Shown here in pieces: positions 4,112-58,327 of a stretch of DNA of 64,000 nucleotides. Below the pieces are notes generated by a model. That model was not told the DNA's origin. It made no database searches and saw nothing but the letters and a program-made list of their open reading frames with translations. This stretch comes from an uncultured bacterium (GTDB lineage: Bacteria; Bacteroidota; Bacteroidia; Chitinophagales; Chitinophagaceae). The translations under genes were made by a program, and so were the position numbers. The DNA lies in NCBI GenBank assembly GCA_964293305.1, contig CAXYYO010000011.1, positions 1-64,000 of the forward strand, written 5' to 3'. How positions within the stretch are numbered: the stretch's first letter is position 1; the number at the start of each line of letters is the position of its first letter.

Positions 4112-4125
4112 CAGCGTTAATAAAC

Positions 4126-5058: not shown

Positions 5059-5073
5059 ACAACAATTGTACTT

Positions 5074-5988: not shown

Positions 5989-6027
5989 AAATTGTTGCTT
6001 GATTTTTTTAGGACTTATAAATCATTA

Positions 6028-7101: not shown

Positions 7102-7119
7102 GGAATAAATAATTATTTA

Positions 7120-8544: not shown

Positions 8545-8751
8545 GCCTATGTTTTTGGGGCGCAAACATAATGAATCTAACTCAATGAGTGAACATACGA
8601 TTTGTTTGAATGTAGCCAATATCGCCAGCCCTGTAAAGACAAACTCCAAATATCATAATACATGGAAAAAATAATTTGAAATCGATTCATTTACTTTCAA
8701 TTCCTCATTTCTCTGCATATTGCCATAATTTTTAATATAATTTATTGTAAT

Positions 8752-13935: not shown

Positions 13936-13973
13936 TTCTATGTTTTCACTACTCAAACTTAAATTAAAATTTG

Positions 13974-31526: not shown

Positions 31527-31806
31527 GATGTACCCATGATGTAGTTGAAATTGGTCAAAAATAAGGGCATTAGTTAAATGTTGTAGATGGGTTGTAGCCT
31601 ATTTTTTGGTAGTAGCATACGTTGAATTTTAAGTTTGCAGCCTAATATTATTTAAAATATTAAACAAACGATTGCAGCATTTCCTACACGGTTACTTTCA
31701 CAACATCAATATGGCAGCTATACATATTGATGGATAATGTAAAGTCCAATTGTCATGCTTGTTGTATGTTTTAGATAAAACTAAATTATTAAAAATTACT
31801 CCTTTT

Positions 31807-34800
31807 ATGAAGAAGATTTCGACGCTTGTTTGTCTCCTAGTATGTACTCAAATGCTATTTGCTCAGCAAGATATTATTACTGTCAAACATGGTGCCGATG
31901 GCCACCGATTAACAGTAAATGGAAAAGATTTTATTGTTAATGGTATGAACTGGGATTATTTTCCAATTGGTACTAACTTCACCTATAGTCTTTGGAATCA
32001 ACCTGCAGATATCATCAAAGCTGCTTTAGATTATGAAATGCCCTTGCTAAAAAATATGGGTATAAATACTATTCGTCAATATACAGGAGTACCAGCAAAG
32101 TGGATTAAATATATATATGAAGAATATGGAATTTATACAATGCTCAATCACAGTTTTGGAAGATATGGTCTTACTCTAAGCGGAGCTTGGTTTCCAAATA
32201 CAAACTACTCTGATCCAAGAGTAAGTGAATTATTAATTAAAGAAGTAAAAGCAATGACTGAGGAATATAAAAATACTCCTGGTTTATTATTATTTCTATT
32301 GGGCAATGAAAATAACTATGGTCTTTTTTGGAGAGGGGCTGAAACAGAAGATATGCCGCAGGAAGACAGGCAATCTACAAAAGATGCCTTCTATCTATAT
32401 AAACTATTTAACGATGCCGTTAAGGAAATGAAATCTATCGACAAAAACCATCCAATGGCTATTTGTAATGGAGATTTACTCTTCTCAGAAATTATAGCAA
32501 AAGAGTGTACTGACATTGATATACTTGGTATTAACTCATATAGAGGAATCAGTTTTACAGATTTATACCAAAAGGCAGCAAAAACAATCAACAAACCTGT
32601 TGTATTAACTGAGTTTGGCGCAGATGCCTACAATGCACAAGGCAATAGCGAAGACCAAGAATACCAAGCAAAAGTTTTGGTGAAAAACTGGAAAGAAATA
32701 TATGCTAATGTGGCCGGTATGGGAAATGCCGGAAACAGTATTGGAGGATTTACCTTTCAGTTTAGCGATGGCTGGTGGAAAACAGGACAAACTGTAAACT
32801 TAGATGAGCATGATCCAGCAGCTTCTTGGTCAAATGGTGGATATCAAAATGACTTTGTAAAAGGTGAAAACAATATGAATGAGGAGTGGTTTGGTATCTG
32901 TGCAAAAGGACCAAACAACGAAAGAGGTATATATCAATTATATCCTCGTGCTGCATATTATGCATTGAAAGAATTACATGAGTTTAATCCATACAGTGAT
33001 GCTGCAAAAACGCAGATTAATGTCATTGATAATATACAAATTACTGATGCAGCTTTAAGAGCCAGAGGTGATAAAGCAGCTCTAGATGCAGAACAAAAAA
33101 GTAAAGTCTATTTAAGTGATTTGCAAGCAAATTTTACAACTTATAACACAGGCGGTTCTTTGATTTCAACACCAAAGGAAGCTGACCCTGCAAACAACGG
33201 TTATCCAAACCGTTTGGGCTTTGACCATATGCAGTCATTCAATATTGGTATTACAGCCAAACCTGCTCCAAACATGACAGCTAATGTACAGTTTAATGTA
33301 TTGGGAAATGTAGCTGAAAATCCAATAGATGAAGTATTTTATGAGAATAGAGGAAGAAGAATAACAGTAAGTACTCCAACTGGCCCTCAACAAATAAATT
33401 CTAACAATAGGGTGCAGTTATATAGAGCAAGTTATACTTGGGATACCAAGTATTTTAACGTAAATGGTTTTTATCGTACCGGTCATTATCATTGGGGATA
33501 TGAAGGGGATTTCTTTGGTCTTTATCCGGAAGCAAACTACGGACCAAATATTGATATATATAATGGCGATGCCCCTTCTGGTTTTGAAATAAAAGGCAAG
33601 AAATTTTTAGACGGTTTTAAATTAGCTTTTGGACCTGAATTGTGGTGGGGAGCAAACCCGGCAGTATTATTGAAATATTCCAAAAAACTGGCTGGATTTC
33701 AGGTGTCAACAGTTTTTCATGAAGACCTTACTCAGCGTTCTGGCATTCAAAGTTCCATAGCAATACCGCAACCCAAAACAAGAAGACTTTCTCTGGCTAT
33801 CGAAAGAAAAGCAGGTAAAGTTGGTGTATCAGTTGGTGGCTTATGGGCAGGCCAACCATTGAATGGCCGCACTTTCCAAGTGGTAAGAGGCACAAAAGAT
33901 AATTATGAAATATTTCAAGACCAGATAAAAGCAGAGGATAATTTTGGTGGTAAGGTAAAATTGACCTACGAAGGTGGAGTTTTCAAATGGTATGCATCAG
34001 GAGCTGCAATGGGTTTAGTAGCAAATGGTGGTTATGATAATACAAAAACATATACCGGATGGAGATTGAAAGATAATGGAAGCGGAAATATGTATAATTT
34101 CCTTTCTGGCTTTACAGTTAATGTGGGTAAAATTCAAATAGCTCCAAATTTCTTATGGCAGAAACCAATTGAAGGACCTATTCCAACAGACGTGCCTGCT
34201 CCGGGTCGTGCAAGAAATATTCAAGATGATCCTTTTTCTGTAAGAATAAATAGAGAAACAGTAGCTGGAGAACTATTATTGACTTATGATCCAACCCCTG
34301 GTACTTGGATGTATGAATGGGATAATGACAGAGCAGAAGATGCAAAATTTGCTATGAGTCTTGACTTTGTATATAGACATTTACCAACTACTCAAGATGC
34401 TGCTATTGGTATTCTTGCAAATGGACGTACCACATTCGCATTTCCCGGTGCTGCACCGGCTTTAGACCTTTGGGAAACAAACCTGAGAATGGTATCTAAA
34501 ATAAATCCCGAATTTGGTATAATAGGGAATATTTATGTAGGAAATGGTCAAGCAAATGGTAGCAATGCCAGAACCATTGATAGGTTTGGTGGAGACATTA
34601 GAACTATTTATAAAAAAGTAAAATTAATGGGTGTAGCAAAGTTCAATGATTGGGGCCCTTTTGACTATCATAGGGACTTTAACCTTACATTCCCATTACA
34701 GCTAATGTTAGATTTATCTACCGAATTGGGCAAGCCAGATTGGTTTCTTTTACCAGGCACTCGCCTAGGAGTAAGAGGTACATACAGAACACTTGATAAA

Positions 34801-34935
34801 TATTCACCACGATACGCACCTACATACACAGTAGGCCCAGACGGAAACCCTGTACCAGATCCAAATGCAATAGGCTACCCCAATGGCAATGAGTGGGAAA
34901 TAAGGACTTACATACAAATAAACATAGGCAAATAA
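31807..34935 (+). CDS. secreted clan GH-A (GH5-like, TIM-barrel) glycoside hydrolase domain fused to a ~640-aa C-terminal β-strand-rich, porin-like region
   Basis: The start is at the internal Met (MKKISTLVCLLVCTQMLFAQ signal). The catalytic-acid motif is LLFLLGNENNYG and the nucleophile motif is VVLTEFGADAY. The C-terminal half is Gly/Asn/Tyr-rich with alternating amphipathic strands (KVKLTYEGGVFKWYASG, RLSLAIERKAGKVGVSVGG). Confidence 0.6.
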   Translation: MKKISTLVCLLVCTQMLFAQQDIITVKHGADGHRLTVNGKDFIVNGMNWDYFPIGTNFTYSLWNQPADIIKAALDYEMPLLKNMGINTIRQYTGVPAKWIKYIYEEYGIYTMLNHSFGRYGLTLSGAWFPNTNYSDPRVSELLIKEVKAMTEEYKNTPGLLLFLLGNENNYGLFWRGAETEDMPQEDRQSTKDAFYLYKLFNDAVKEMKSIDKNHPMAICNGDLLFSEIIAKECTDIDILGINSYRGISFTDLYQKAAKTINKPVVLTEFGADAYNAQGNSEDQEYQAKVLVKNWKEIYANVAGMGNAGNSIGGFTFQFSDGWWKTGQTVNLDEHDPAASWSNGGYQNDFVKGENNMNEEWFGICAKGPNNERGIYQLYPRAAYYALKELHEFNPYSDAAKTQINVIDNIQITDAALRARGDKAALDAEQKSKVYLSDLQANFTTYNTGGSLISTPKEADPANNGYPNRLGFDHMQSFNIGITAKPAPNMTANVQFNVLGNVAENPIDEVFYENRGRRITVSTPTGPQQINSNNRVQLYRASYTWDTKYFNVNGFYRTGHYHWGYEGDFFGLYPEANYGPNIDIYNGDAPSGFEIKGKKFLDGFKLAFGPELWWGANPAVLLKYSKKLAGFQVSTVFHEDLTQRSGIQSSIAIPQPKTRRLSLAIERKAGKVGVSVGGLWAGQPLNGRTFQVVRGTKDNYEIFQDQIKAEDNFGGKVKLTYEGGVFKWYASGAAMGLVANGGYDNTKTYTGWRLKDNGSGNMYNFLSGFTVNVGKIQIAPNFLWQKPIEGPIPTDVPAPGRARNIQDDPFSVRINRETVAGELLLTYDPTPGTWMYEWDNDRAEDAKFAMSLDFVYRHLPTTQDAAIGILANGRTTFAFPGAAPALDLWETNLRMVSKINPEFGIIGNIYVGNGQANGSNARTIDRFGGDIRTIYKKVKLMGVAKFNDWGPFDYHRDFNLTFPLQLMLDLSTELGKPDWFLLPGTRLGVRGTYRTLDKYSPRYAPTYTVGPDGNPVPDPNAIGYPNGNEWEIRTYIQINIGK

Positions 34936-34942
34936 TTTCTAT

Positions 34943-36805
34943 ATGAAAAAGAACATAAATAAACATTTCATCGTATTAGCACTGCTAGCTCTGACCATAG
35001 GATGTAAAAGAGAGCTGTCCGACTTAGAATCTGCAGCATATCCAACAACATCCGCAGTTTTCTTGGACGATTTTACCGGAGACCTTATCTATGCTGCATT
35101 TGGTGGCTCAGATGTAAGAGCATTTCAAGTAGTAAAAGAAGATACTTATGGCGGTTCTGCTGCCGCAATGCGTTTTGATGTGCCGGATGAAAATAGCCCA
35201 AAAGGCGCATTTGCAGGAGGTGCATTCTTTAGCAGAACAGGAAGGGACCTCACGGGATACAATGCACTTACATTTTATGTAAGAGCATCACAACCGGTAA
35301 ATATTGGTGTAGTTGGATTTGGTAATGATTTTGGCGAATCAAAATATGTAACTTCCATTAGTGGGGTACCTGCAAATACAAACTGGCAGAAGGTAATTAT
35401 TCCAATTCCAGACGCTTCAAAACTTTCTGCGGAAAGAGGTTTGTTTTATATTTCAGCAGGTGCATTAAATGGAAGAGGTTATACCATTTGGGTGGATGAA
35501 TTACAATTTGAAAACCTTTCAAATCTTTCACCTGTTACAGGTCTGATTGCATTGGGTAAGGATAGTGTAATAAATGGTGCAGAAAATGAAAGCACATATA
35601 GCACTGGCGCTTTTCAAGCAAGCGCTAATTTACCTTCAGGTATCAACCAAGTTGTAAATACTACCGCAAATTTTTTCACTCTAATTGCTTCAAACTCAAG
35701 TGTAGCAAGTGTAACAGAGAACGGTATAATTACAGTACTTGATTCAGGTCAATCCATCATCACTGCAAAACTTGGTGATCAAGACGCAAAAGGTAGCATT
35801 ACTATCAATGGTGTTGGTGCGGGAATAAAGCCTGCCACAATTGCTCCTGTGCCTTCTTATGATCCGGCAAATGTCATATCAATGTATTCAAATGTTTATC
35901 CAAATGAACCGATAGATACTTGGAATACAAGATGGTTGTATTCTACTGCTGAAAATGATTTCATCAGCCTATATGGTGATGATGTAATCAAATACAGAAG
36001 TTTGAATTTTGTAGGTATAGAATTTACATCCCAACCAATAGATGCTACTGAAATGACAAATTTCCGTATGAATATATGGACACCAGACCCTACTAATTTA
36101 CCAAATAATTTTAAAGTATTGTTAGTTGATTTTGGTGCAAATGGTGTGTTTGGCGGAGGTGATGATGCATCCTCGGAGCTTACATTTACAAGTCCTCTAT
36201 TAGTAACAAATAATTGGGTTACTATTGATGTGCCATTAAGTAGTTTTACTACATTAACTACAAGAGCACATTTAGCACAGTTAGTACTTTCAGGTACTTT
36301 ACCAAACGTTTTTGTAGACAACGTATTGTTCCATAAAATTTCATCAGAACCTACAGTTGCTGCACCTGTTCCAACTTATAATTCAGCAGACCTATTATCC
36401 ATTTTAAGTGATAGTTATACAAATCTGGCTGGAACAGATTTCAATCCAAATTGGGGTCAGGCTACTGTAGTTTCTCAAAAACCTATTGCAGGAAATAATA
36501 CACTTGTATATAAAGGATTAAACTATCAAGGTACACAGTTTGCCTCTGCACAAAATGTATCCGATAAAACATATCTGCACCTTGACTATTATACTACAAA
36601 TTCAACCAGTTTGAAAGTATATTTGATTAGTGCAGGTCCTGCGGAAAAACCCTATACACTCACAGTGCCATCAGGGTCTGGATGGAGAAGCGTTGATATA
36701 CCGTTATCATCATTTGCACCCACCGTGGATTTAACCAAGGTGATACAGATGAAATTTGATGGCAATGGAGATATTTACCTAGACAATATCTTATTTAGAA
36801 AATAA
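34943..36805 (+). CDS. surface lipoprotein with an N-terminal β-sandwich domain, a Big_2-like Ig domain and two CBM-like repeats (candidate surface glycan-binding protein)
   Basis: It has a lipoprotein signal ending in a Cys (LALLALTIGCKRE). Two internal repeats share ...Y(D/N)xA(N/D)(V/L)(I/L)S(M/I)(Y/L)S(N/D)xY...W...IEF(T)...(M/H)...W. It is homologous to 49810-52158 throughout. Confidence 0.65.
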   Translation: MKKNINKHFIVLALLALTIGCKRELSDLESAAYPTTSAVFLDDFTGDLIYAAFGGSDVRAFQVVKEDTYGGSAAAMRFDVPDENSPKGAFAGGAFFSRTGRDLTGYNALTFYVRASQPVNIGVVGFGNDFGESKYVTSISGVPANTNWQKVIIPIPDASKLSAERGLFYISAGALNGRGYTIWVDELQFENLSNLSPVTGLIALGKDSVINGAENESTYSTGAFQASANLPSGINQVVNTTANFFTLIASNSSVASVTENGIITVLDSGQSIITAKLGDQDAKGSITINGVGAGIKPATIAPVPSYDPANVISMYSNVYPNEPIDTWNTRWLYSTAENDFISLYGDDVIKYRSLNFVGIEFTSQPIDATEMTNFRMNIWTPDPTNLPNNFKVLLVDFGANGVFGGGDDASSELTFTSPLLVTNNWVTIDVPLSSFTTLTTRAHLAQLVLSGTLPNVFVDNVLFHKISSEPTVAAPVPTYNSADLLSILSDSYTNLAGTDFNPNWGQATVVSQKPIAGNNTLVYKGLNYQGTQFASAQNVSDKTYLHLDYYTTNSTSLKVYLISAGPAEKPYTLTVPSGSGWRSVDIPLSSFAPTVDLTKVIQMKFDGNGDIYLDNILFRK

Positions 36806-36832: not shown

Positions 36833-37675
36833 ATGAAAGCAATTTATAAAATTTTTAATCGTACACATGCACTACAATATACATTATTGTTTGCATTAGT
36901 TGGCTTATTTTCAAACTGTAAAAAAGAAAGCAAACAAACATTACTTGAAAGATCATACAAATTAGTGTGGAGTGATGATTTTGATGGAATAGCTGGCACG
37001 GCCCCTGATGGTGCAAAATGGACTTATGATATCGGTGCAGGGGGTTGGGGAAATCAAGAGTTACAGTATTATAGTAATAGTACAGAAAACGTATCTCATG
37101 ATGGATTTGGCAACTTACTTATAACAGCTACAAACAAAGGTACTGGTGGTGCTCCATTCACTTCTGGGCGAATAAAAACACAAGGTTTGTTTGGCCAAGC
37201 TTATGGAAGAATTGAGGCAAGATTAAAAACTCCGTCTGGCCCAGGTATTTGGCCTGCTTTCTGGATGCTTGGTGAAGATATCACAACAAATCCATGGCCG
37301 GCATGTGGGGAAATAGATATCATGGAATTAAGGGGTCAAGAGCCATATATCATAAATGGTACTTTACATGGTCCCGGCTATTCTGGTGGCAATTCTGTAA
37401 CAAAAACATATACACTTACAGAAGGCAGATTTGATACAGACTATCACATTTATGCCGTAGAATGGGGCACAGACTATATTGATTTCTTTGTGGATGATTA
37501 TTTATATAATCGTCTTACCCCAGCTGATCTTGCAGGTGAGTGGGTGTATAATAAACCATTCTTTTTAATTTTAAATATAGCAGTGGGCGGTACTTATGTT
37601 GGCTTCCCCACTTCAGGCACATCATTCCCTCAATCTATGGTTATAGACTATGTAAGGGTTTATGATGAACAATAA
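36833..37675 (+). CDS. GH16 family β-glucanase (laminarinase-like) lipoprotein
   Basis: It has the GH16 catalytic motif E-I-D-I-M-E (CGEIDIMELRG) and a lipoprotein signal (LFALVGLFSNCKKE). Confidence 0.85.
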   Translation: MKAIYKIFNRTHALQYTLLFALVGLFSNCKKESKQTLLERSYKLVWSDDFDGIAGTAPDGAKWTYDIGAGGWGNQELQYYSNSTENVSHDGFGNLLITATNKGTGGAPFTSGRIKTQGLFGQAYGRIEARLKTPSGPGIWPAFWMLGEDITTNPWPACGEIDIMELRGQEPYIINGTLHGPGYSGGNSVTKTYTLTEGRFDTDYHIYAVEWGTDYIDFFVDDYLYNRLTPADLAGEWVYNKPFFLILNIAVGGTYVGFPTSGTSFPQSMVIDYVRVYDEQ

Positions 37676-40700: not shown

Positions 40701-41223
40701 GATTGTATCAAAACTCATTGCTCAGTATTATGATGTAAAAGCCGGAATTGGTGTGCACAAATCTCCACAGGTTTTTGGAGCATTTCCTATTACTCCTTAT
40801 TCGCATACGCCTTTTAATAAAGGTGCACAACAACCGGGCATGACTGGTCAGGTAAAAGAAGATATTTTATGCCGCATTGGCGAACTTGGTATAAAACTTA
40901 AAGATGGTTATCTCAAATTTGAACCACGATTATTATTTGCAGCCGAATTTTTGACACCTAAAAGTACCGCTACATTTGTACTTTCTGATGGTAGTATAAA
41001 AGAGATTTCAATGCCAGAAAATAGTTTGGCTTTTTCTATTTGTCAGCTGCCTGTTATCTATACAAAATCCCAACAAAATAAAATAGAAGTACATCATTCA
41101 AATGGTGCCATAGAATCATTTGAAGGTAATACATTGAATGCAGATATCAGTACTAAGATCTTTCAAAGAACTGGAGAAATTATTACACTCATTGTTCACA
41201 TCAATACAGACATTTTGCGATAA
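37798..41223 (+). CDS. large (1141 aa) signal-less, predicted cytoplasmic protein; candidate glycoside phosphorylase (GH94/GH149/GH161-like), function unverified
   Basis: No N-terminal hydrophobic segment is present. It sits inside the β-glucan locus and its stop overlaps the downstream GH17 start (TAATG). No family signature was confidently recognised by eye. Confidence 0.35.
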   Translation: MYMTTTMLETVEINNEAFFKISDTDAMRPFFMSIVSNSDHWMFVSSNGGISAGRKNPDNAFFPYYTDDKITEHAENTGSKTIFQISKGGTTYLWEPFSNRGEGRYDITRNIYQNKWTNKVLFEEINLDLHLTFQYEWNSSNLFGFVKQSRLFNNSTETIDVKLVDGFQNIIPAGVPCDLQTKTSNLADAYKRSELLPALGIGIFALSAIIVDKAEPAEALKANIAWSVGLDNAVYLLSPNQLKAFRQNQNIYQEEDIKGEKGSYLVVSNLSLEAGVQKHWMVIGNLNQNHSALAALSNQISTDNDLKHKILADIEAGTHQLKQLTGAADSFQYTADKLNDTRHFSNVLFNIMRGGIFDNNYQIHKKDFLQYLQKANKIVYQTVQPELSNLADEFSLFGLKNIAAASLNPDFIRLATEYLPLKFSRRHGDPSRPWNQFSINIKNENDGSEILDYQGNWRDLFQNWEALAYSYPSFIEGMISKFLNATTFEGYNPYRVTKDGFDWETIEPDNPWSYIGYWGDHQIIYLLKFLEFSEQLDAGSISKMLAKRNFVYANVPYKIKAYQDIVKHPKDTIEFDHLNEKNIHVRIQAMGADGALLQNLSGEIYRVNFLEKILATLLSKLSNFIPEAGIWMNTQRPEGNDANNALVGNGVSMVTLCYLRRFLKFLQPVLANIAKQNIPISKELYTLFNDLSNIFSNNLTLLSAPISDKDRKIITDALGEAGSAYRIQIYEHGFSAEMKEVSGAELISLVNHSIQFAEHTIRANKRKDGLYHAYNLLSFDGEAVRIAYLSEMLEGQVAVLSSGLLSPKENAEVLEALKNSALYRAEQNSYILYPNKSLLKFSERNTIPNTAVQNSELLKKLLNDNSTAILEKDINGQYHFNGNFKNAGDLLIGLNRLSAKYQLLVAKEKSIVLQIFEDVFNHKEFTGRSGTFYGYEGLGSIYWHMVSKLGVAAMEVCLQAIQDNADGEIVSKLIAQYYDVKAGIGVHKSPQVFGAFPITPYSHTPFNKGAQQPGMTGQVKEDILCRIGELGIKLKDGYLKFEPRLLFAAEFLTPKSTATFVLSDGSIKEISMPENSLAFSICQLPVIYTKSQQNKIEVHHSNGAIESFEGNTLNADISTKIFQRTGEIITLIVHINTDILR

Positions 41224-42473
41224 TGAGCAAACTGTCATCCATCATATTAATTTGCATAATGGCCTGCGCTTGCGGCTATGGTTCAAAGATTGATTCTGTA
41301 GAAAGAACGGCTGCAGAAATTTTGGGCGATAAAAACTATCAAGCAATATGTTATGGAGGATACAGATCCACCACAAGAGATGTAGCCCCAACAGTGGCAG
41401 AAATAAAAGAAGATTTAAAAATATTATCCGCACTAAACTTTAAGATTTTAAGAACATACAATGTCTATTTGCCAGAGATAAATAACCTGCTTCAAGCCAT
41501 TGCGGAGCTAAAAAAAGAAATCTCAAATTTTGAAATGTATGTAATGATGGGTACATGGATTGATTGTAAAAATGCATGGACAAGTGCAGCTCCTATTCAT
41601 ACAGAAGAAAGTGATAAAAACGCAACAGAAATAGCAACAGCTGTACAGTTGGCCAATCAATACCCTGATATTGTAAAAATTATTGCCGTAGGCAATGAAG
41701 CAATGGTAAACTGGGCTACAGGATATTATGTTACTCCAGATATCATCCTAAAATGGGTTACCCATTTACAAACACTGAAACAGGAAAATAAGTTGCCAAA
41801 AGATTTATGGATAACTAGTTCTGACAATTTTGCCTCTTGGGGTGGCGGTGGAAATGAATATCATGTACCTGCATTGGAGGCGCTTGTAAAAGCTGTTGAT
41901 TATATATCTGTGCATACCTACCCCATGCATGATACACATTACAACCCTGCCTTTTGGGGCGTAAAAGTATCTGAGCAAAAGCTTAGTAATAAACAGCAGA
42001 TTGATGCTGCTATGCTGCGTGCAAAATGGTATGCAGTAGCACAATATGACAGTGTAGTATCTTACATAAAGTCAATAGGTGTAGAAAAACCTGTACATAT
42101 TGGAGAAACGGGCTGGGCATCAGTATGTAATGAACTGTATGGTCCAAATGGTTCAATGGCTGTGGATGAATACAAATCTGCACAGTATTATCATTTAATA
42201 AGGGACTGGTCAAATGCAAATAATATAAGTTGTTTTTTCTTTGAAGCTTTTGATGAAAGCTGGAAGAATAGTGCAAATCCAATGCATTCAGAAAATCATT
42301 TTGGTTTAATCAATTTACAATCCGAAGCAAAATATGCTCTTTGGCACCAGGTAGATGCAGGAGCGTTAAAAGGCTTAAGTAGAAATGGCATGCCCATTTC
42401 CAAAACATATAATGGTAATGATACCCTTTTATGGAAAGATGTACTAACGCCAAAAAAAATATTAAATGATTAA
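41223..42473 (+). CDS. GH17 family β-1,3-glucanase/transglycosylase lipoprotein
   Basis: It has a lipoprotein signal (IILICIMACACGYGSK). The GH17 catalytic motifs are IAVGNEAMVNW (acid/base) and HIGETGWAS (nucleophile). Confidence 0.8.
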   Translation: MSKLSSIILICIMACACGYGSKIDSVERTAAEILGDKNYQAICYGGYRSTTRDVAPTVAEIKEDLKILSALNFKILRTYNVYLPEINNLLQAIAELKKEISNFEMYVMMGTWIDCKNAWTSAAPIHTEESDKNATEIATAVQLANQYPDIVKIIAVGNEAMVNWATGYYVTPDIILKWVTHLQTLKQENKLPKDLWITSSDNFASWGGGGNEYHVPALEALVKAVDYISVHTYPMHDTHYNPAFWGVKVSEQKLSNKQQIDAAMLRAKWYAVAQYDSVVSYIKSIGVEKPVHIGETGWASVCNELYGPNGSMAVDEYKSAQYYHLIRDWSNANNISCFFFEAFDESWKNSANPMHSENHFGLINLQSEAKYALWHQVDAGALKGLSRNGMPISKTYNGNDTLLWKDVLTPKKILND

Positions 42474-44019
42474 AATGCTAAAAGTCCAACACTACCATAA
42501 AAAAATTGTATCGTATTTAATTTTTGTGTTTATGATGATCACTACAATTACAAGCTGCACCGGTAATGAAACATTCACAACAGAAGTATATGAAACAGCT
42601 GCAAATGGTAATGCCTTAACGCTAATCACTGATCAATCTTCAAAGGAAGCACCAATAGAAATAACCATAAACCCAGAAGAAAAATATCAAACCATTACAG
42701 GATTTGGTGGTTCGTTTACACAAGCTACTGCTACCCTGCTCAATCAAATGAGTGATACAAATCGTAAAAAAATTTTAGCAGCATATTTTGGTGATGATGG
42801 TGCAAGATATTCATTAACCAGAACCCATATCAACTCCTGCGATTTCTCTACTCACAATTATGCCTATGCTAATGAGCCCGGAGATACTGCACTCAATAGC
42901 TTTTCCATTGATGAGGATAGAAAAGCATTAATCCCAATAATTAAACAAGCTATGAGCCTTTCAACCGAAGGGTTTAAAATAATATCATCACCTTGGTCAG
43001 CACCACCTTGGATGAAAGATAATAATGATTGGAGAGGTGGAAAACTATTGCCACAATACAACAATACATGGGCCAAGTACTTTGCAAAGTATTTAGATGC
43101 CTATAAAAAAGAGGGTATTGATATATGGGGTATCACTGTAGAAAACGAGCCCTTGGGTAATGGAAAGAATTGGGAAAGTATGGATTTTTCTCCTGAGGAA
43201 ATGACAGCATTTGTAAAAGATTTTCTAGGTCCCTATCTCGAAAACAATGGCCATGCCTCCGTAAAGATTTTAGGCTATGATCAAAACCGTGGGGATGCTT
43301 TAAAACAATGGGCAGATGTAATGTATGCTACTGAATCGTCTTCAAAATATTTTTCAGGAATGGCGGTACATTGGTATGCCAGTACTTATGATGTATTTCC
43401 TGAATCATTACAACATACTTATGAAAAAGCCCCACAAAAATATATCATCAATACAGAGGCTTGCATAGATGCCGATGTACCACATTGGAAAGATGACAAT
43501 TGGTATTGGAGCAAGGAAGCCACAGATTGGGGTTGGGATTGGGCAAGTGAAGCAGAAAAATATTTGCATCCAAAGTATGCCCCAGTATTTCGATATGCCA
43601 ATGATATAATCGGGTGTTTAAACAACAGGGTAGATGGATGGATAGATTGGAATATGGTTTTAGATAAACAGGGTGGCCCAAACTGGTTTAAGAACTGGTG
43701 TACAGCTCCTGTAATTGTAGATACAACCACAGATGAAGTTTATTTTACACCACTATTTTATACCCTTTCCCATTTTAGTAAATTCATAAGACCCGGTGCT
43801 GTAAGAATTGGGTTCACAAATCAAGATAGTTCATTACAAGTTACTGCTGCGCAGAATCCGGATGGCTCCATGGCCATTGTACTTTTTAACCCAACAGAAA
43901 ACGATAAAAATTATAATATCACCTTCGGTGAAAAAAAAATAGCTAGCATCATTCACGGAAAAGCAATACAAACCGTAGTCATAAAAAAATCAAATCAAAC
44001 AAGCAATGACAAAAAGTAA
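42466..44019 (+). CDS. GH30 family glycoside hydrolase (β-1,6-glucanase-like) lipoprotein
   Basis: It has the GH30 hallmarks TITGFGGSFT and SPWSAPPWMK, the acid/base ITVENEP and a lipoprotein signal (ITTITSCTG). It overlaps the neighbouring genes by 8 nt and 14 nt. Confidence 0.8.
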   Translation: MIKMLKVQHYHKKIVSYLIFVFMMITTITSCTGNETFTTEVYETAANGNALTLITDQSSKEAPIEITINPEEKYQTITGFGGSFTQATATLLNQMSDTNRKKILAAYFGDDGARYSLTRTHINSCDFSTHNYAYANEPGDTALNSFSIDEDRKALIPIIKQAMSLSTEGFKIISSPWSAPPWMKDNNDWRGGKLLPQYNNTWAKYFAKYLDAYKKEGIDIWGITVENEPLGNGKNWESMDFSPEEMTAFVKDFLGPYLENNGHASVKILGYDQNRGDALKQWADVMYATESSSKYFSGMAVHWYASTYDVFPESLQHTYEKAPQKYIINTEACIDADVPHWKDDNWYWSKEATDWGWDWASEAEKYLHPKYAPVFRYANDIIGCLNNRVDGWIDWNMVLDKQGGPNWFKNWCTAPVIVDTTTDEVYFTPLFYTLSHFSKFIRPGAVRIGFTNQDSSLQVTAAQNPDGSMAIVLFNPTENDKNYNITFGEKKIASIIHGKAIQTVVIKKSNQTSNDKK

Positions 44020-45448
44020 AACAGATCCAAAAGACATTGTGCCTTTTGGGCAGAAAGTAGCTTTTGGTGCCGGCAATCTTACCAATCAACTATTACCGGC
44101 GGCCTTAGGTGTATTTATGTTTTTCTTAGTAGTAGGCTTTGGTATGAATCCTACAAAAGCTGGTATCCTTGCTGCCATACCAAGATTTATTGATGCCATT
44201 CTCGATCCTATCATGGGATATATCTCAGACAATACAAGGTCCAAATGGGGTCGTAGAAAACCTTATATTTTTGGAGGTGCTATCATTACGGGATTGTCTT
44301 TTATACTCATGTGGCAATTAAAAATACCTGTAGAAGGAAATAATAATGAAACGTATAATTTCATTTACTTCCTTATCATGTCTGTGGTTTTTTATTTAGG
44401 GTATACTGTTTTTGCAGCACCATTAATAGGGTTAGGATATGAAATGACACCAGACTATAATGAGCGTACTCGGTTAATGGCCATGAGCCAAATTATGGGT
44501 CAAATAGCATGGATGATTGCACCTTGGTTTTGGTTTCTTATTTCTAGGCCTGAAATATTTCCAAATGCCCCTACAGGTGTAAGACAACTCTCTGTTTGGG
44601 TAGGTGTATTGTGTTTGATAATGGGTATAATGCCAGCTATCTTTTGCAAAGAGGTTGATCAAGCTAATCTACAGGGTCAAACAAAATTATCTATGAAAGA
44701 TTTAGTTGCCAATATGAAACATTTTTTTGGCGACATTAAAAAAACAATCACTAACAAACCATTCTTACGACTATGTGGAGCTACTTTTTTAGTATTTAAT
44801 GGATTTCAAATAGTGGCACAGTTTGCCTTCTTCATCATTATCTTTTATATGTATAATGGAGATCAGGCAGCGGCAGGTCAGTGGCCAGCATGGTTTGGAA
44901 CTGTAAGTGCTTTAGTTACTGCTACTTTGGTTATTCCAATCATCACATACATGTCCACAAAAATTGGTAAGAGAAACGCATTTATTGTTTCTACTATTAT
45001 ATCCATTGTTGGATATTCACTTAAATGGTTTGGATTTTCACCGGGCAATCCTTGGTTAATGTTTATGCCCATACCATTGATGTCATTTGGTATAGGTGGT
45101 TTATTCACTTTAATGATGAGTATGACTGCTGATGTATGTGATTATGATGAATTAAAAAATGGAATGCCACGCAAAGAAGCATTGTTTGGCGCAGTGTACT
45201 GGTGGATGGTTAAATTAGGAACATCATTAGCATTGTTTATAAGTGGAGTGGTACTGAGCAGCGTTGGGTTTGATCAAAACGCCAAAGAACAATCAGCATC
45301 TGCTATAACTGCACTGCGTATGGCTGATGTTATTGTGCCATCAATAGCAGGGCTGCTTGCCATTGTAGTAATGTGGGGATATAATATTTCTGAAAAAAGA
45401 GCCATTGAAATCAGAGAAGAATTAATCATTAGAAGAGGTAAATTATAA
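44006..45448 (+). CDS. GPH family (MFS_2; glycoside-pentoside-hexuronide:cation) symporter
   Basis: The 480-aa ORF has about 12 TM helices. The GPH signature is DPIMGYISDNTRSKWGRRKPYIFGGA (D-x3-R...GRR-P). Confidence 0.8.
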   Translation: MTKSKTDPKDIVPFGQKVAFGAGNLTNQLLPAALGVFMFFLVVGFGMNPTKAGILAAIPRFIDAILDPIMGYISDNTRSKWGRRKPYIFGGAIITGLSFILMWQLKIPVEGNNNETYNFIYFLIMSVVFYLGYTVFAAPLIGLGYEMTPDYNERTRLMAMSQIMGQIAWMIAPWFWFLISRPEIFPNAPTGVRQLSVWVGVLCLIMGIMPAIFCKEVDQANLQGQTKLSMKDLVANMKHFFGDIKKTITNKPFLRLCGATFLVFNGFQIVAQFAFFIIIFYMYNGDQAAAGQWPAWFGTVSALVTATLVIPIITYMSTKIGKRNAFIVSTIISIVGYSLKWFGFSPGNPWLMFMPIPLMSFGIGGLFTLMMSMTADVCDYDELKNGMPRKEALFGAVYWWMVKLGTSLALFISGVVLSSVGFDQNAKEQSASAITALRMADVIVPSIAGLLAIVVMWGYNISEKRAIEIREELIIRRGKL

Positions 45449-45470: not shown

Positions 45471-47813
45471 ATGTCAAACCATACAGGATCAGTTGCTAAA
45501 GTACCCATGATTCAAAAAATAGCTTTCGGACTTGGCATGCTTGCCAATCAAATGTTTCCGGCAGCTTTGGGCATATTCATGGTAGTGCTGGTAGAAGATT
45601 TAAAATTTCCTGCATGGATGTGGGGTTTCTTATTTTTTGTACCACGCATATTTGATGCTTTTGTAGATCCCATCATGGGTTTTATAACTGACAATACCAA
45701 GTCAAAGTGGGGAAGAAGAAGGCAGTATGTATTTGCTGGTGCCATTCTAATGGGCATTTCATTTATTGCCATGTGGCAGCTATACAGAGAAAATGGTATT
45801 GATTATAATTTCATTTATTTCCTCATCTGGTCTTTTCTGTTTTATTTAGGATTATCAATATTCAGTGTACCTTATGTAGCCATGGGATATGAAATGAGTG
45901 ACGATTTTCATGAGCGCACAAGTATCATGGCCATTTCCCAATGGATTGGTCATTGGGCTTGGGTTATAGCACCTTGGTTTTGGGTGGTTATGTATGATAA
46001 AGGGTGGTTTGTAAATGCCGATACAGCCACAAGAACGCTGGCTATATGGGTAGGTGTGGTTTGTATGCTACTCGCCATGACGCCTGCCTTTTTTATTAAA
46101 AGTAAATCTACATTAAACGAAGAGAGTTATACACCATTAAGTATGAAAACAATTGGTGGTAGTCTCAAAGAAATATTTGAAAGTTTTAAAGAAGCATTCA
46201 AGCTTAAAGCATTTAGAAAACTCTGTATAGCTACATTTTTTATCTTCAATGCATTCAACACAGTAGCAGGGTTTACTTTCTTCATTGTTGTATATCATTT
46301 GTTTGGCGGCAAAGCAGAAGATGCGGGTATCTGGCCTACATTATTTGGTAGTGTGGGTGCATTGGTTACTACATTTATTGTTATTCCAATAGTCTCTTTT
46401 ATTTCAAAGAAAATGGGTAAAAAATCTGCGTTCTTGTTATGTCAGGGCATATCCATTCTTGGTTATATTATGTTGTGGTTTTTCTTTATCCCGGGCAAGC
46501 CATATATGTTTCTTTTTGCATTACCATTTTTCTCTTTTGGCATAGGAAGTTTATTTACTTTGATGATGAGTATGACCGCAGATGTATGCGATATGGATGA
46601 ACTTTCATCAGGAAAAAGAAGGGAAGGAATTTTTGGTGCTATCTATTGGTGGATGGTGAAATTTGGGTTTGCCATTGCAGGTTTATTAACCGGAGTTATT
46701 ATGTCTGGGGTTGGCTTTGTGCCGGGTGCAGACACACAGGCAGATGGCGCTATTACAGGGCTACGATTATTTTTCTCAGGCATACCCATTGCAGGTACAT
46801 TAATAGCCATGTGGGTAATGCGAAATTATGATTTGAATGAAGAAAAAGCTAGAGAAATAAAAGCAGAATTAGATAGAAGAAAAGCTAGTCCAAAAATATC
46901 TTCTGGATACCAGGCCGGAAATTTGTGGCAGAGAGCAAGCCATCTTCAACTGCCTCATTTTACAGGAGCCCCCTTACAGCAAATGACTGAAGATAAAATT
47001 AAAGAAATGTTTGCCTTTCAACTAAAAAAAGGAGTACATGGTCTATGTTTTAGTCCTTATCTTGAAGGTCAAGATGCAGGGGATATATTGATTGAATCAG
47101 AAACAAAAGCAAGGGTGGAAATTGTGGCGCCTCATACCCAGTGGGTCCGTTCTTTCTCAACTACAGCAGGTCATGAAATCATTCCATCATTTGCAAAAGA
47201 AAAAGGACTGAAAACAGTAGCCGGGGCATGGATAAGTAATGATAAATTGCAAAATGAAAAAGAAATTGCAAACCTTATACAACTTGCAAAAGCGGGTAAA
47301 GTTGATATAGCAACAGTAGGCAATGAAGTTTTGCTGCGCAATGAATTAAATACAGCTGATCTTGTAGCATATATTAACAAGGTAAAGGAAGCAGTACATC
47401 CGGTGCCGGTTAGTTATGTTGATGCCTATTTTCAATGGATAGAACATCCGGAGTTGATAGATGCTTGCGATATGGTGATGATAAATTGCTATCCATTCTG
47501 GGAGGGTTCATCAATCGAAAATAGCTTGGATGATTTACGAAAAATGTATTTACTGATGAAGCAATCTGCTCCAAATAAAAAAGTTATTATTGCAGAAACC
47601 GGATGGCCAAGTGAAGGGGATAATATAAATAATGCAACACCCTCTACGCTGAATGCTCAAAAATATTTTCTAGCAGTACAGGAATGGGCTATCAAAGAAA
47701 ATATTGAGCTCTTCTATTTTTCATCTTTTGATGAAACATGGAAAATAAAACAAGAAGGAGCATTGGGAGCTAGATGGGGCATTTGGAATAAGGATGAAAA
47801 ATTAAAATATTAA
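45471..47813 (+). CDS. GPH family symporter (aa ~1-470) fused in frame to a C-terminal GH17 domain (aa ~490-780)
   Basis: The N-terminal half has ~12 TM helices and the signature DPIMGFITDNTKSKWGRRRQYVFAGA. The C-terminal half has the GH17 motifs ATVGNEVLLRN and IIAETGWPSEGD. It is closely paralogous to 47828-48724, and both end ...WGIW(N/D)K.E.LKY. Confidence 0.75.
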   Translation: MSNHTGSVAKVPMIQKIAFGLGMLANQMFPAALGIFMVVLVEDLKFPAWMWGFLFFVPRIFDAFVDPIMGFITDNTKSKWGRRRQYVFAGAILMGISFIAMWQLYRENGIDYNFIYFLIWSFLFYLGLSIFSVPYVAMGYEMSDDFHERTSIMAISQWIGHWAWVIAPWFWVVMYDKGWFVNADTATRTLAIWVGVVCMLLAMTPAFFIKSKSTLNEESYTPLSMKTIGGSLKEIFESFKEAFKLKAFRKLCIATFFIFNAFNTVAGFTFFIVVYHLFGGKAEDAGIWPTLFGSVGALVTTFIVIPIVSFISKKMGKKSAFLLCQGISILGYIMLWFFFIPGKPYMFLFALPFFSFGIGSLFTLMMSMTADVCDMDELSSGKRREGIFGAIYWWMVKFGFAIAGLLTGVIMSGVGFVPGADTQADGAITGLRLFFSGIPIAGTLIAMWVMRNYDLNEEKAREIKAELDRRKASPKISSGYQAGNLWQRASHLQLPHFTGAPLQQMTEDKIKEMFAFQLKKGVHGLCFSPYLEGQDAGDILIESETKARVEIVAPHTQWVRSFSTTAGHEIIPSFAKEKGLKTVAGAWISNDKLQNEKEIANLIQLAKAGKVDIATVGNEVLLRNELNTADLVAYINKVKEAVHPVPVSYVDAYFQWIEHPELIDACDMVMINCYPFWEGSSIENSLDDLRKMYLLMKQSAPNKKVIIAETGWPSEGDNINNATPSTLNAQKYFLAVQEWAIKENIELFYFSSFDETWKIKQEGALGARWGIWNKDEKLKY

Positions 47814-47827
47814 ATCAACACATATAT

Positions 47828-48724
47828 ATGTCATTTAGAAAAGAAAACATATTATCACTTCGGCCAGATTCAGCAAGTAGCTATGTAGCCGGTGAATCAG
47901 AAGATACGCTTAAAGATTTATTTGCAGAAATAATGCAAAATGGGGTACATGGATTTTGTTTCAGTTTATATGAAGATGGACAAAAACCGGGTGATATCAT
48001 TTCTGAGGCACAGGTGCGTCGCCGCATGAATATCTTAAAGCCGCATACAAAATGGATACGTTCATTTTCCTGCACAGAGGGAAATGAATGGATACCTCGA
48101 ATAGCTAAAGAAATGGGCATTAAAACCCTAGTAGGTGCATGGCTTGGCAATGATCCTGAAATTAATAAAAGAGAAATTGAAGGATTACTTCAGTTAGCCA
48201 AAGAAGGTTTGGTAGATATTGCTGCGGTGGGCAATGAAGTGATGTACAGAAAAGATCTTACCGAAGATGAATTACTCGAATTCATCCACCATGTAAAATC
48301 TGAAATACCACATATACCCGTTGGCTATGTAGATGCATATTATGAGTTTTCTCATAGACATAGAATTACAGAAGCTTGCGATGTTATACTCTGCAATTGT
48401 TATCCATTCTGGGAAGGATGCCCCATTGATAATTCATTGGATTATATGAAGCAAATGTATTATCAAGCCAAAGCGGCAGCCAATGGAAAGGAAGTAATCA
48501 TAACAGAAACGGGCTGGCCAAGTATGGGTGAAACGCTCAAAGGCTCTGTACCATCAGAAAAAAGTTCAAGAGATTATTTTATTAATACACAATTATGGTC
48601 AGCCAATGATAATATACCCACATTCTATTTTTCATCTTTTGATGAGTCTTGGAAGGTAGGGGCGGAAGGTGTGGTAGGCGCTTACTGGGGCATTTGGGAT
48701 AAGCATGAAAATCTGAAATACTAA
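47828..48724 (+). CDS. GH17 family protein without signal peptide (predicted cytoplasmic)
   Basis: The 298-aa ORF has AAVGNEVMYRK and IITETGWPSMGE. The N-terminus MSFRKENILSLRPDSASSYVAGESED has no hydrophobic leader. Confidence 0.8.
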   Translation: MSFRKENILSLRPDSASSYVAGESEDTLKDLFAEIMQNGVHGFCFSLYEDGQKPGDIISEAQVRRRMNILKPHTKWIRSFSCTEGNEWIPRIAKEMGIKTLVGAWLGNDPEINKREIEGLLQLAKEGLVDIAAVGNEVMYRKDLTEDELLEFIHHVKSEIPHIPVGYVDAYYEFSHRHRITEACDVILCNCYPFWEGCPIDNSLDYMKQMYYQAKAAANGKEVIITETGWPSMGETLKGSVPSEKSSRDYFINTQLWSANDNIPTFYFSSFDESWKVGAEGVVGAYWGIWDKHENLKY

Positions 48725-48726
48725 GC

Positions 48727-49668
48727 ATGAATTTTTTTGATCAATATGGCTTGAAGCCTGCAAAAGCAATTTGCTATTCCGGGTTTAGAAATGGGCAGCA
48801 GCCGGGCAGCATCTATCCGTCTTATGAGGAGGTGAAAGAAGATTTGTTATTACTTCAAAACGAATGGAAATATCTTCGCTTATATGATTGTGATACTCAT
48901 GCGCAAACAGTTCTTGATGTTATTCATAAAGAACAGTTTGATTTTAAAATAATGCTTGGGGCGTATATAGAAGCTGAAATGAATAATTTTGGTTGCCCTT
49001 GGGGGGGTGGTGTTTTTGAGGAAAAGCAATTGGAAGTAAATGCTCTACGCAATGAGCAGAAAATAAAACAACTCATTGAATACGCAAATCAGTTTCCCGA
49101 TATTATTTTTTCCTTATCTGTGGGCAATGAGGCTTGTGTTGATTGGACAGATCATTTTGTGCCTGTAAGCAAAGTAGCTGAGTATGCCAATTTGGTAAAG
49201 AAAAATGCCAAACAGCCAGTTACATTCTGCGAAAACTATTTGCCTTGGATCAATCAATTGAAGCCTGCCATTGAAGCATTTGATTTTATATCCATACATA
49301 CTTACCCAGTATGGGAGTATAAGCATATTCATGAATCAATAGAATATACAAAGCAAAATTATTATGCTGTAGCTAATCAATTTCCTGATAAAATTGTTAC
49401 CATAACAGAAGCTGGATGGGCTACCAATTCAAATGGAAGAGGTATAAACCCAGAGCATGTGAATGAAGAAAATCAAAAGATATATTTTGAAAGTCTGATG
49501 GAATGGAGTGAAAAGGAAAAAATATTGACCTGTTTTTTTGAAGCATTTGATGAACCTTGGAAAGGCTCAAATCATCCTATGGAACCAGAAAAGCACTGGG
49601 GATTATTTAGGGAAAATAGAAGTCCTAAGTTGTCAATGCAGCACAAAAATATCCTCACTTTTAATTAA
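48727..49668 (+). CDS. GH17 family protein without signal peptide (predicted cytoplasmic)
   Basis: The 313-aa ORF has LSVGNEACVDW and TITEAGWATNS. The N-terminus MNFFDQYGLKPAKAICYSGFRNGQQPG has no leader. There is a 2-nt gap from the upstream gene. Confidence 0.75.
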   Translation: MNFFDQYGLKPAKAICYSGFRNGQQPGSIYPSYEEVKEDLLLLQNEWKYLRLYDCDTHAQTVLDVIHKEQFDFKIMLGAYIEAEMNNFGCPWGGGVFEEKQLEVNALRNEQKIKQLIEYANQFPDIIFSLSVGNEACVDWTDHFVPVSKVAEYANLVKKNAKQPVTFCENYLPWINQLKPAIEAFDFISIHTYPVWEYKHIHESIEYTKQNYYAVANQFPDKIVTITEAGWATNSNGRGINPEHVNEENQKIYFESLMEWSEKEKILTCFFEAFDEPWKGSNHPMEPEKHWGLFRENRSPKLSMQHKNILTFN

Positions 49669-52158: not shown

Positions 52159-52226
52159 GTTAGAAAATAAAATTCACCATTTTTTGGTGAAAAAATATTG
52201 CTGAAATAGATTCAGATAATATGTAG

Positions 52227-52258
52227 AGAGGCTGTCTTTTTAGGCAGCCTCTTTTTTT
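52227..52258 (+). terminator. rho-independent terminator closing the β-glucan locus
   Basis: AGAGGCTGtctttttaggCAGCCTCTTTTTTT. Confidence 0.8.
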
Positions 52259-58295: not shown

Positions 58296-58327
58296 TTTTC
58301 TAGTCTATAATTTTATTTTATATATTT

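Follow-up and report, generated by a model that had tools for sequence, protein, structure and literature searches.

The locus described here raises the question of what two tandem genes of glycoside hydrolase family 17 (GH17), neither of which encodes a signal peptide, contribute to the metabolism of the uncultured Chitinophagaceae bacterium that carries them. The genes, hereafter ORF1 and ORF2, lie within a 64,000-nucleotide stretch of contig CAXYYO010000011.1 (GenBank assembly GCA_964293305.1), referred to throughout as the window, and end an 18-kb co-directional beta-1,3-glucan utilization locus. A preliminary description of the window had regarded an intracellular GH17 pair as unusual and had named the GH17 domain of NdvB as its functional precedent. 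The reading to which our analysis leads, and which we regard as probable, is that the two genes encode distinct GH17 enzymes which finish, in the cytoplasm, the utilization of beta-1,3-glucan, be it laminarin, chrysolaminarin or fungal glucan. The two genes are as follows.

47828..48724, + strand: ORF1, stand-alone GH17 of the MlGH17B/RmBgt17A type, with Tyr140 at 48245-48247 and Trp195-Glu196 at 48410-48415
48727..49668, + strand: ORF2, stand-alone GH17 on a branch of its own, with Val138, Trp196-Glu197 (49312-49317), E135 and E228

Family assignment and export signals

ORF1 (298 amino acids [aa]) scored 39.3 bits against Pfam model PF00332, above the cut-off of 28.2, and its best solved relative was structure 4WTP of RmBgt17A, a fungal beta-1,3-glucanosyltransferase (E 7.9e-33). 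ORF2 (313 aa) scored 23.4 bits against the same model, under the cut-off; by sequence, the crystal structure 6FCG, a GH17 entry, was matched at E 1.7e-25 and 4WTP at E 1.8e-7. An AlphaFold2 model of ORF2 (predicted local distance difference test score [pLDDT] 81.2, predicted template-modeling score [pTM] 0.85) showed the (beta/alpha)8 barrel of the family and matched 6FCG by fold in Foldseek (E 1.2e-15, query-normalized TM score 0.79), the top Protein Data Bank folds being the GH17 entries 6FCG, 8AKP and 4WTR. The model of ORF1, built from 27 close homologues, was weak (pLDDT 62.6) and was used only to note that its best folds were still 4WTR and 4WTP. None of the NCBIfam models matched ORF1, ORF2 or the exported GH17A-type protein encoded in the same locus.

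The catalytic residues were located at E137 (acid/base, 48236-48238) and E227 (nucleophile, 48506-48508) in ORF1 and at E135 (acid/base, 49129-49131) and E228 (nucleophile, 49408-49410) in ORF2, the acid/base standing in an NE motif and the nucleophile in E-x-GW, as fits GH17. In the alignment, ORF1 E227 falls on the position altered in 4WTR, an active-site mutant of RmBgt17A. Both catalytic Glu residues were invariant in the 78 ORF1 homologues and the 79 ORF2 homologues, and indeed in all four GH17 groups compared (ORF1, ORF2, the transporter-fused domain described below and GH17A). By these motifs, which the preliminary description had already read as intact, both proteins are assigned to GH17 as complete members, that is, as predicted retaining, beta-1,3-glucan-active enzymes of clan GH-A. 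ORF1 and ORF2 share 27% identity; the figure is 50% between ORF1 and the fused GH17 domain of the same window, and 29% between ORF2 and GH17A of the same operon. As judged from their sequences, ORF1 and ORF2 are two different enzymes and not duplicates.

That the pair had been described as free of signal peptides and hydrophilic at the N-terminus was confirmed in both genes and in their homologues. ORF1 begins with MSFRKENILSLRPDSAS and ORF2, which starts after a gap of 2 nucleotides (nt) from the ORF1 stop, with MNFFDQYGLKPAKAICYSG. In-frame stops were found 10 codons ahead of the ORF1 ATG (at 47795) and 6 codons ahead of the ORF2 ATG (at 48706), and in neither gene was there an ATG, GTG or TTG between this stop and the ATG. 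Because of these close stops and the lack of an alternative start codon, an upstream start adding a signal peptide, which would have overturned the preliminary description, is impossible barring a frameshift. The highest 10-residue Kyte-Doolittle mean over the first 40-45 residues was 0.81 for ORF1 and 0.54 for ORF2, against a value of 3.23 in the operon's GH17A lipoprotein, and neither a twin-arginine motif nor a C-terminal domain of the type IX secretion system (T9SS; Pfam) was found in either protein. No N-terminal hydrophobic stretch was present in any of the 78 ORF1 or 79 ORF2 homologues, all of which had short hydrophilic N-termini, whereas the GH17A homologues all had a hydrophobic N-terminus of the lipoprotein type. 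The N-termini of ORF1 and ORF2 were alike in length and character over some 78 homologues from independent assemblies. From hydropathy and motif inspection, ORF1 and ORF2 almost certainly work in the cytoplasm. A signal peptide gained through an upstream start or a frameshift had been considered as well and was ruled out by the stops together with the N-termini of the homologues.

The third cytoplasmic GH17 site that the preliminary description had counted belongs to the gene directly upstream, which encodes a transporter of the major facilitator superfamily (MFS) carrying a GH17 domain.

45471..47813, + strand: MFS(GPH)-GH17 fusion of the FbGH17B type, 780 aa; PF13347, 217 bits, residues 19-457

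The transporter comprises approximately residues 11-474 and the GH17 domain approximately residues 505-780 (46983-47813). The former aligned with MelB residues 2-454 of 485, spanning all twelve helices, and scored 196.7 bits against the GPH symporter model TIGR00792, under the cut-off of 231.35. Transporters of the GPH/MFS type have an N-in/C-in topology, with both ends in the cytoplasm. Given this topology and the MelB alignment, the fused GH17 domain is predicted to face the cytoplasm, and it is reasonable to count three successive GH17 sites in the cytoplasm, even if the third is placed by homology. Hidden export, in which these enzymes would act in the periplasm owing to a wrongly called start, a frameshift from sequencing or a non-classical route, draws on the fact that most characterized GH17 enzymes are extracytoplasmic and that the Formosa study left the side of the membrane undecided for the fused domain (PMC6246565). 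With stops 10 and 6 codons upstream, uniform N-termini among the homologues, conserved partners that are likewise devoid of signal peptides (GH149 here, a GH161 fusion elsewhere) and an MFS C-terminus that is cytoplasmic by homology to MelB, we regard hidden export as scarcely credible.

ORF1, the fused domain and ORF2 compared

The residues of ORF1 were compared to those of MlGH17B, a cytoplasmic beta-1,3-glucanosyltransglycosylase of Muricauda lutaonensis (295 aa, no signal peptide, GenBank WIW39500) (PMC11005184, PMC13188888), which cuts laminaribiose off the reducing end of its substrate and moves the remainder to an acceptor, making beta-1,6 links (PMC11005184). Reading from the published residue numbering rather than from a full-sequence alignment, we found 20 of the 21 published substrate-contact residues of MlGH17B in ORF1 at a constant offset of +4, the sole change being Ser275 to Ala279. 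The MlGH17B aglycone-site triad Tyr136/Trp191/Glu192 corresponds to Y140/W195/E196 of ORF1; in RmBgt17A, Ala substitutions in the triad Tyr102/Trp157/Glu158 abolish transfer (PMC11005184). Trp and Glu were kept in all 78 sequences grouped as stand-alone ORF1 homologues and Tyr in 76 of them, the two sequences without Tyr being contig-truncated MFS fusions. On the strength of these residues, ORF1 is most likely a beta-1,3-glucanosyltransglycosylase of the MlGH17B type.

The fused domain, which matched 4WTP at E 9.8e-31, has its catalytic residues at E619 and E709 (the nucleophile) and the Trp-Glu pair at W677-E678, with Leu622 at the position of the Tyr. Only 2 of 40 fused domains had Tyr at this position, the others having His (20), Leu (9), Phe (7), Met (1) or Gln (1). 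FbGH17B from Formosa sp. Hel1_33_131 (FORMB_24740), an MFS-fused exo-beta-1,3-glucosidase (PMC6246565), has Met there (PMC11005184), and by analogy the fused domain of the window may be a hydrolytic, FbGH17B-like variant of the ORF1 type. Across related loci (L001-L080, see below), the GH17 half of the fusion was approximately 53-64% identical, compared to approximately 81-90% for the transporter half (nearest subtype), and was also less conserved than the free ORF1 (approximately 80-85%).

ORF2 forms a separate branch of the family. In addition to its catalytic Glu residues, Val138 and Trp196-Glu197 were invariant in 79 of 79 homologues, and the branch has an invariant loop of its own, EAEMNNFGCPWGG (residues 82-94). 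At the contact positions of MlGH17B, ORF2 has Val138 for Tyr, Asp for Arg137 and His for both Asn186 and Glu276, and retains only the Trp-Glu pair plus, in the glycone site, Phe, Glu, Trp and Lys. The signal peptide, enlarged barrel and His-Asp pair of the exported endo-laminarinases FbGH17A and MlGH17A are all missing from ORF2. The Trp-Glu pair was considered as a transferase signature of ORF2 and this idea was dropped, the pair being present in exported ORF2-like relatives too. As far as its residues tell, ORF2 is a retaining GH17 enzyme whose sequence does not distinguish hydrolysis from transfer.

The wider ORF2 branch, taken from a library clustered at 50% identity, comprised 122 representatives at E 1e-30 or better and mixes exported members, with a lipoprotein signal and tails resembling carbohydrate-binding modules (CBM), with members without signal peptide. 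The literature that we searched yielded no characterized ORF2-type enzyme and no description of a GH161-GH17 fusion, and the branch apparently lacks a characterized member. Two relatives have other domain layouts: in P0260 (626 aa), an ORF2-like GH17 domain is combined with one membrane segment and the domain of a Ser/Thr protein kinase, and the protein may from this arrangement be a glucan-sensing kinase, while in P0254 a GH2-like TIM-barrel protein is fused to an ORF2-like GH17 domain.

Conservation of the pair and organization of the locus

A genome scan with ORF2 returned 388 relatives, from which the best 80 loci were kept (L001-L080). These belonged to Chitinophagaceae, Saprospiraceae/Lewinellaceae, Spirosomataceae and Flavobacterium croceum; the closest of them (87%) was that of an uncultured Parafilimonas metagenome-assembled genome. 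Cultured bacteria with the locus include Flavobacterium croceum DSM 17960 (L036), Foetidibacter luteolus YG09 (L043) and Ferruginibacter sp. SUN002 (L030). Close homologues of the two proteins number in the thousands, are mostly labelled Chitinophagaceae and are of uniform length (298 aa for ORF1, 305-320 aa for ORF2). In all 78 loci for which upstream sequence was available, an ORF1 homologue was found directly upstream of the ORF2 homologue, the gap most often being 1-2 nt. The pair is thus not a chance pattern, since it recurs in every informative related locus. ORF1 was preceded in 38 loci by a gene for an MFS-GH17 fusion and in 25 by a plain MFS gene, and genes for GH30, often GH17A, and GH149 lay farther upstream. 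ORF1 and ORF2 were the two best-conserved locus enzymes in 45 of 49 loci; mean identities were 74% for ORF1, 71% for ORF2, 60% for GH149 and 65% for GH30. Natural ORF1-ORF2 fusions, sought as evidence of a complex, were absent from the 80 loci and from the homologues listed. In L016 and L028, ORFs of approximately 820 aa fuse a GH2-like TIM-barrel protein to a GH17A-type domain.

These data bear on the reading that the three cytoplasmic GH17s are redundant or chain-length-specialized beta-1,3-glucosidases or glucanases yielding glucose, transglycosylation being a side reaction in vitro. Such a reading agrees with FbGH17B, 53% identical to MlGH17B, having been reported as an exo-glucosidase making glucose (PMC6246565), with the closest structure of ORF2 (6FCG) being that of a hydrolase, and with the source databases labelling both families exo-beta-1,3-glucanase or glucan 1,3-beta-glucosidase. 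The stand-alone ORF1 lineage, however, strictly keeps the Tyr/Trp/Glu triad needed for transfer in RmBgt17A, and because the fused copies of the same loci have lost the Tyr while free ORF1 keeps the triad, two different activities are indicated. Nearly every locus moreover retains ORF1 jointly with ORF2, and often with the fused domain, as its best-conserved enzymes, and this joint retention and top conservation of ORF1 and ORF2 argue against redundancy. We consider redundant hydrolases rather unlikely on balance, and favor two distinct cytoplasmic enzymes.

The genes surrounding the pair place it in a catabolic context. Besides the fusion and the pair, the locus comprises:

28572..31526, - strand (divergent): regulator of BguR architecture, with an N-terminal hydrophobic segment, Reg_prop, Y_Y_Y and, at the C-terminus, GerE
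31750..34935, + strand: GH2-like TIM-barrel protein with signal peptide, first gene of the block
34943..36805, + strand: CBM/Ig-like lipoprotein
36833..37675, + strand: GH16 lipoprotein, 280 aa
37798..41223, + strand: GH149 beta-1,3-glucan phosphorylase, 1141 aa, no signal peptide
41223..42473, + strand: GH17A-type lipoprotein, 416 aa, resembling the exported endo-laminarinases FbGH17A/MlGH17A
42466..44019, + strand: GH30 lipoprotein, 517 aa, by family a debranching beta-1,6-glucosidase
44006..45448, + strand: plain GPH/MFS_2 sugar importer, 480 aa; PF13347, 230 bits
49810..52158, + strand: CBM/Big_2 protein, secreted and carrying a C-terminal sorting domain of the T9SS; final gene ahead of the hairpin

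The co-directional block extends from 31750 to 52158, with gaps of -14 to +22 nt from GH149 through ORF2, and the only strong terminator-like hairpin was found past it, at 52225-52254; we infer that the block is an operon. A sigma-70 promoter scan gave no enrichment over shuffled sequences, and its consensus is unsuited to Bacteroidota. GH16, GH17, GH30 and GH149 enzymes, an MFS importer and a BguR-type regulator occur together, and the gene order agrees with that of the laminarin loci published for Muricauda (PMC13188888) and Formosa (PMC6246565). The GH149 product matched 6HQ6 at E 0 (1431 bits) and the NCBIfam equivalog NF058639 with 1688 bits (cut-off 1150), and probably works with ORF1 and ORF2 in the cytoplasm. 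The context is a catabolic one, combining as it does exported beta-glucanases and two importers of the GPH type with GH149 and the regulator.

Between 28572 and 52158, no SusC/SusD-like gene was detected with Pfam or NCBIfam; the nearest TonB-dependent receptor (58328-61138, - strand) has CarboxypepD_reg and Plug domains and a weak SusC match. The locus is better named a carbohydrate-active enzyme gene cluster than a polysaccharide utilization locus in the strict sense. The receptor gene is followed by an ORF of 468 aa without a Pfam or NCBIfam match (region 56889-61138). The regulator showed no kinase or receiver domain and has a one-component layout (beta-propeller, Y_Y_Y, one transmembrane segment, GerE), here in a non-marine Chitinophagaceae-type genome; the BguR architecture was recently described in marine Bacteroidota (bioRxiv 10.64898/2026.01.10.698779).

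The same surroundings speak to the precedent named in the preliminary description, in which the GH17s would act, as in NdvB, as transglycosylases making cyclic or osmoregulated beta-glucans. The chemistry fits, in that the proteobacterial GH17 domains Glt1, Glt3, Glt7 and Glt20 are transglycosylases, are 27-31% identical to MlGH17B (PMC11005184), and ORF1 retains the transferase triad. Glt1, Glt3 and Glt7 nevertheless cleave from the non-reducing end, unlike MlGH17B (PMC11005184). Neither ORF1 nor ORF2 is fused to a glycosyltransferase of family 2 (GT2), and a Pfam scan of all larger ORFs of the window revealed a single GT2, a protein of 266 aa encoded 38 kb off (8752-9552) in an unrelated polysaccharide cluster, and no GT2 glucan synthase within the locus or close to it. 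The genes sit instead among importers, exported glucanases and a BguR-type catabolic regulator, here and in the related loci. An NdvB-like role is very improbable under these circumstances, and the precedent was abandoned in favor of the catabolic reading, the scan having placed GT4 and GT2 genes solely in the unrelated cluster at 1427-9552.

ORF2-like enzymes were found next to phosphorylases in other lineages too. One locus, L082:4587-12216, encodes in this order GH149 (44% identical), an ORF1-like GH17 (53%), an ORF2-like GH17 (55%) and GH3, with an 8-nt overlap at the ORF2-like gene and a histidine kinase plus LytTR as regulator; from its gene content, the module of GH149 and a GH17 pair exists outside the Chitinophagaceae-type locus. 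A relative 42% identical to ORF2 adjoins a GH161-like phosphorylase, GH16 and a LacI regulator. In P0256 (L081:8001-12104; 1367 aa, no signal peptide), a GH161 beta-1,3-glucan phosphorylase, matching 9QQK at E 4.5e-238, carries a C-terminal ORF2-like GH17 domain, and the surrounding cluster encodes ABC permeases, two GH16 enzymes and one GH94 enzyme. Taken together, these three contexts indicate that ORF2-like enzymes repeatedly partner cytoplasmic beta-1,3-glucan phosphorylases of two families.

Elsewhere in the window, a cluster of the polysaccharide-biosynthesis type (1427-9552) holds a GT4 gene, two sulfotransferase-family genes (4126-5058 and 5074-5988), an MBOAT acyltransferase, a GINT1_N-like protein and the small GT2, and may, from this gene content, make a sulfated glycan. 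The + strand at 13971-17138 encodes a protein of 1055 aa in which Sortilin/Vps10 and BNR/Asp-box repeats were detected and which has no relation to the GH17 pair.

A putative cytoplasmic pathway and its known counterparts

In the pathway that we propose, in which each activity and the order of the steps are predicted, the exported GH16, GH17A and GH30 lipoproteins would cut and debranch the polymer outside the cytoplasm, and the two GPH-type symporters, one of them bearing its own cytoplasmic GH17 domain, would bring the oligosaccharides in. Once in the cytoplasm, these would be handed to the fused GH17 domain, ORF1, ORF2 and the GH149 phosphorylase. By analogy with MlGH17B, ORF1 would free a short reducing-end piece such as laminaribiose and transfer the rest to another chain, whereas the fused domain, without the Tyr of the acceptor platform, would hydrolyze in the manner of FbGH17B. 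ORF2 would reshape imported oligosaccharides so that the phosphorylase can turn them into glucose-1-phosphate; its steady partnership with ORF1 and with phosphorylases suggests such a preparation of substrates for phosphorolysis.

Several points weigh against this reading. MlGH17B is weak on oligosaccharides whose degree of polymerization (DP) is below 5, and the exported GH17A homologue yields DP2-4 (PMC13188888). Because MlGH17B prefers DP5 and above while GH17A supplies shorter products, the in vivo substrate of ORF1 is in doubt. The GH149 enzyme Pro_7066 already phosphorolyzes laminaribiose (PMC5827456). In L082, the ORF1-like partner has Leu instead of Tyr; the Tyr is thus not needed for GH17 pairing and, to judge from this sequence, is not universal in ORF1-like partners outside Bacteroidota. 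Trp-Glu, for its part, does not read as a transferase signature in the ORF2 branch, more distant cytoplasmic ORF2-like proteins varying at its Glu. To these must be added the low confidence of the ORF1 model, the reliance on residue numbering for its likeness to MlGH17B, and the assignment of both proteins to the cytoplasm by hydropathy and motifs.

The preference of MlGH17B for longer chains also enters into a different proposal, namely that GH149 runs in reverse on glucose-1-phosphate, with ORF1 branching and ORF2 mobilizing the product, to form a transient laminarin-like glucan stored in the cytoplasm. GH149 enzymes lengthen acceptors to DP 11 in vitro (PMC5827456), MlGH17B makes beta-1,6-branched products for which its authors proposed a storage role (PMC11005184, PMC13188888), and the chains of DP5 or longer that it favors are not supplied by imported DP2-4 alone (PMC13188888). 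Yet the literature surveyed reports no beta-1,3-glucan granules or pools for these bacteria, and the locus is built like a catabolic operon under a periplasmic-sensor regulator. High cellular phosphate, in addition, usually favors phosphorolysis, which counts against storage. We give the storage role a slim chance only. The broader idea that ORF1, ORF2 and a beta-1,3-glucan phosphorylase make up a nucleotide-sugar-independent pathway that builds, branches and re-mobilizes such a transient glucan, the branches being beta-1,6 links made by ORF1, is also improbable; if true, imported sugar could be put aside in this way by Bacteroidota that feed on blooms or fungi. The final steps of beta-1,3-glucan breakdown remain the role that we favor for the pair.

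The core of this finding was already known, "cytoplasmic GH17" genes in GH149 clusters having been noted in 2018 (PMC5827456), the transporter fusion having been described in the same year (PMC6246565), and MlGH17B having been characterized in 2024 (PMC11005184) and placed in its locus in 2026 (PMC13188888). With these precedents, an intracellular GH17 pair is less unusual than the preliminary description had assumed. New, relative to the literature searched, are the ORF2 branch as a distinct type of GH17 that is strongly conserved and lacks a signal peptide, the invariance with which it is coupled to ORF1, and the recurrent association, including fusion, of ORF2-like enzymes with beta-1,3-glucan phosphorylases. 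Laminarin-type beta-1,3-glucans are among the largest organic-carbon fluxes, and models of their consumption by Bacteroidota mostly end at the periplasm. The present type of locus, in which a phosphorylase joins as many as three GH17 active sites on the cytoplasmic side, was found in at least 78 genomes, mainly of non-marine Chitinophagaceae, Saprospiraceae/Lewinellaceae and Spirosomataceae; a modified form of it was found in another lineage. Given these cytoplasmic enzymes and the wide occurrence of the locus, the final steps of beta-glucan utilization look more elaborate than hydrolysis to glucose. The ORF2 branch, which falls below the Pfam threshold and has no NCBIfam model although ORF2 is among the two best-conserved enzymes of the locus, offers a defined and testable target, and the split between free, Tyr-containing and fused, Tyr-less domains a natural test of what separates transferase from hydrolase in GH17.

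Compared to known systems, ORF1 resembles MlGH17B in being a stand-alone protein of about 295-298 aa without signal peptide whose gene is placed after GH17A, GH30 and MFS genes in a beta-glucan locus, and the Muricauda locus, whose last GH17 gene is that of MlGH17B, also has GH2, GH16, GH149 and a LuxR-type regulator, as here. It differs in its host, a non-marine Chitinophagaceae-type bacterium, in coexisting with an MFS-GH17 fusion, and in always being followed by ORF2, a gene absent from the Muricauda locus as described. The fusion of the window shares with FbGH17B an N-terminal 12-helix GPH/MFS transporter and a C-terminal GH17 domain in which the transferase Tyr is replaced (Leu here, Met in FbGH17B) and Trp-Glu kept. 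Unlike FbGH17B, ORF1 and ORF2 are free of a transporter, and whereas the fusion is the only GH17B-type copy described in Formosa, fused and free forms coexist here.

ORF2 comes nearest, by sequence and fold, to the endo-laminarinases FbGH17A/MlGH17A (6FCG), with which it shares a Val three residues after the acid/base Glu. Its identity to GH17A is only 25-29%, however, and it lacks the lipoprotein signal. At 313 aa it is some 100 residues shorter than GH17A (416 aa), without the insertions after strand 6, where it has Trp-Glu (YPVWE) instead of His-Asp (YPMHD). With the GH17 domains of the NdvB type, the pair has in common an intracellular bacterial location and, for those domains, a transglycosylase chemistry akin to that proposed for ORF1; the NdvB-type domains are biosynthetic and fused to GT2 synthases, whereas ORF1 and ORF2 are stand-alone, soluble and part of a catabolic operon.

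In the maltodextrin system of E. coli, oligosaccharides brought in by an importer are processed in the cytoplasm by a transglycosylase, a phosphorylase and a glucosidase (MalQ, MalP and MalZ). The proposed route from importer to cytoplasmic transglycosylase, phosphorylase and glucosidase follows the same plan, as a functional analogy only, since the protein families and the linkage (alpha-1,4 in the maltodextrin system) are unrelated. The logic may differ as well, GH149 already acting on the disaccharide: with Pro_7066 accepting laminaribiose, the need for chain lengthening of the MalQ type would be weaker than for maltodextrin.

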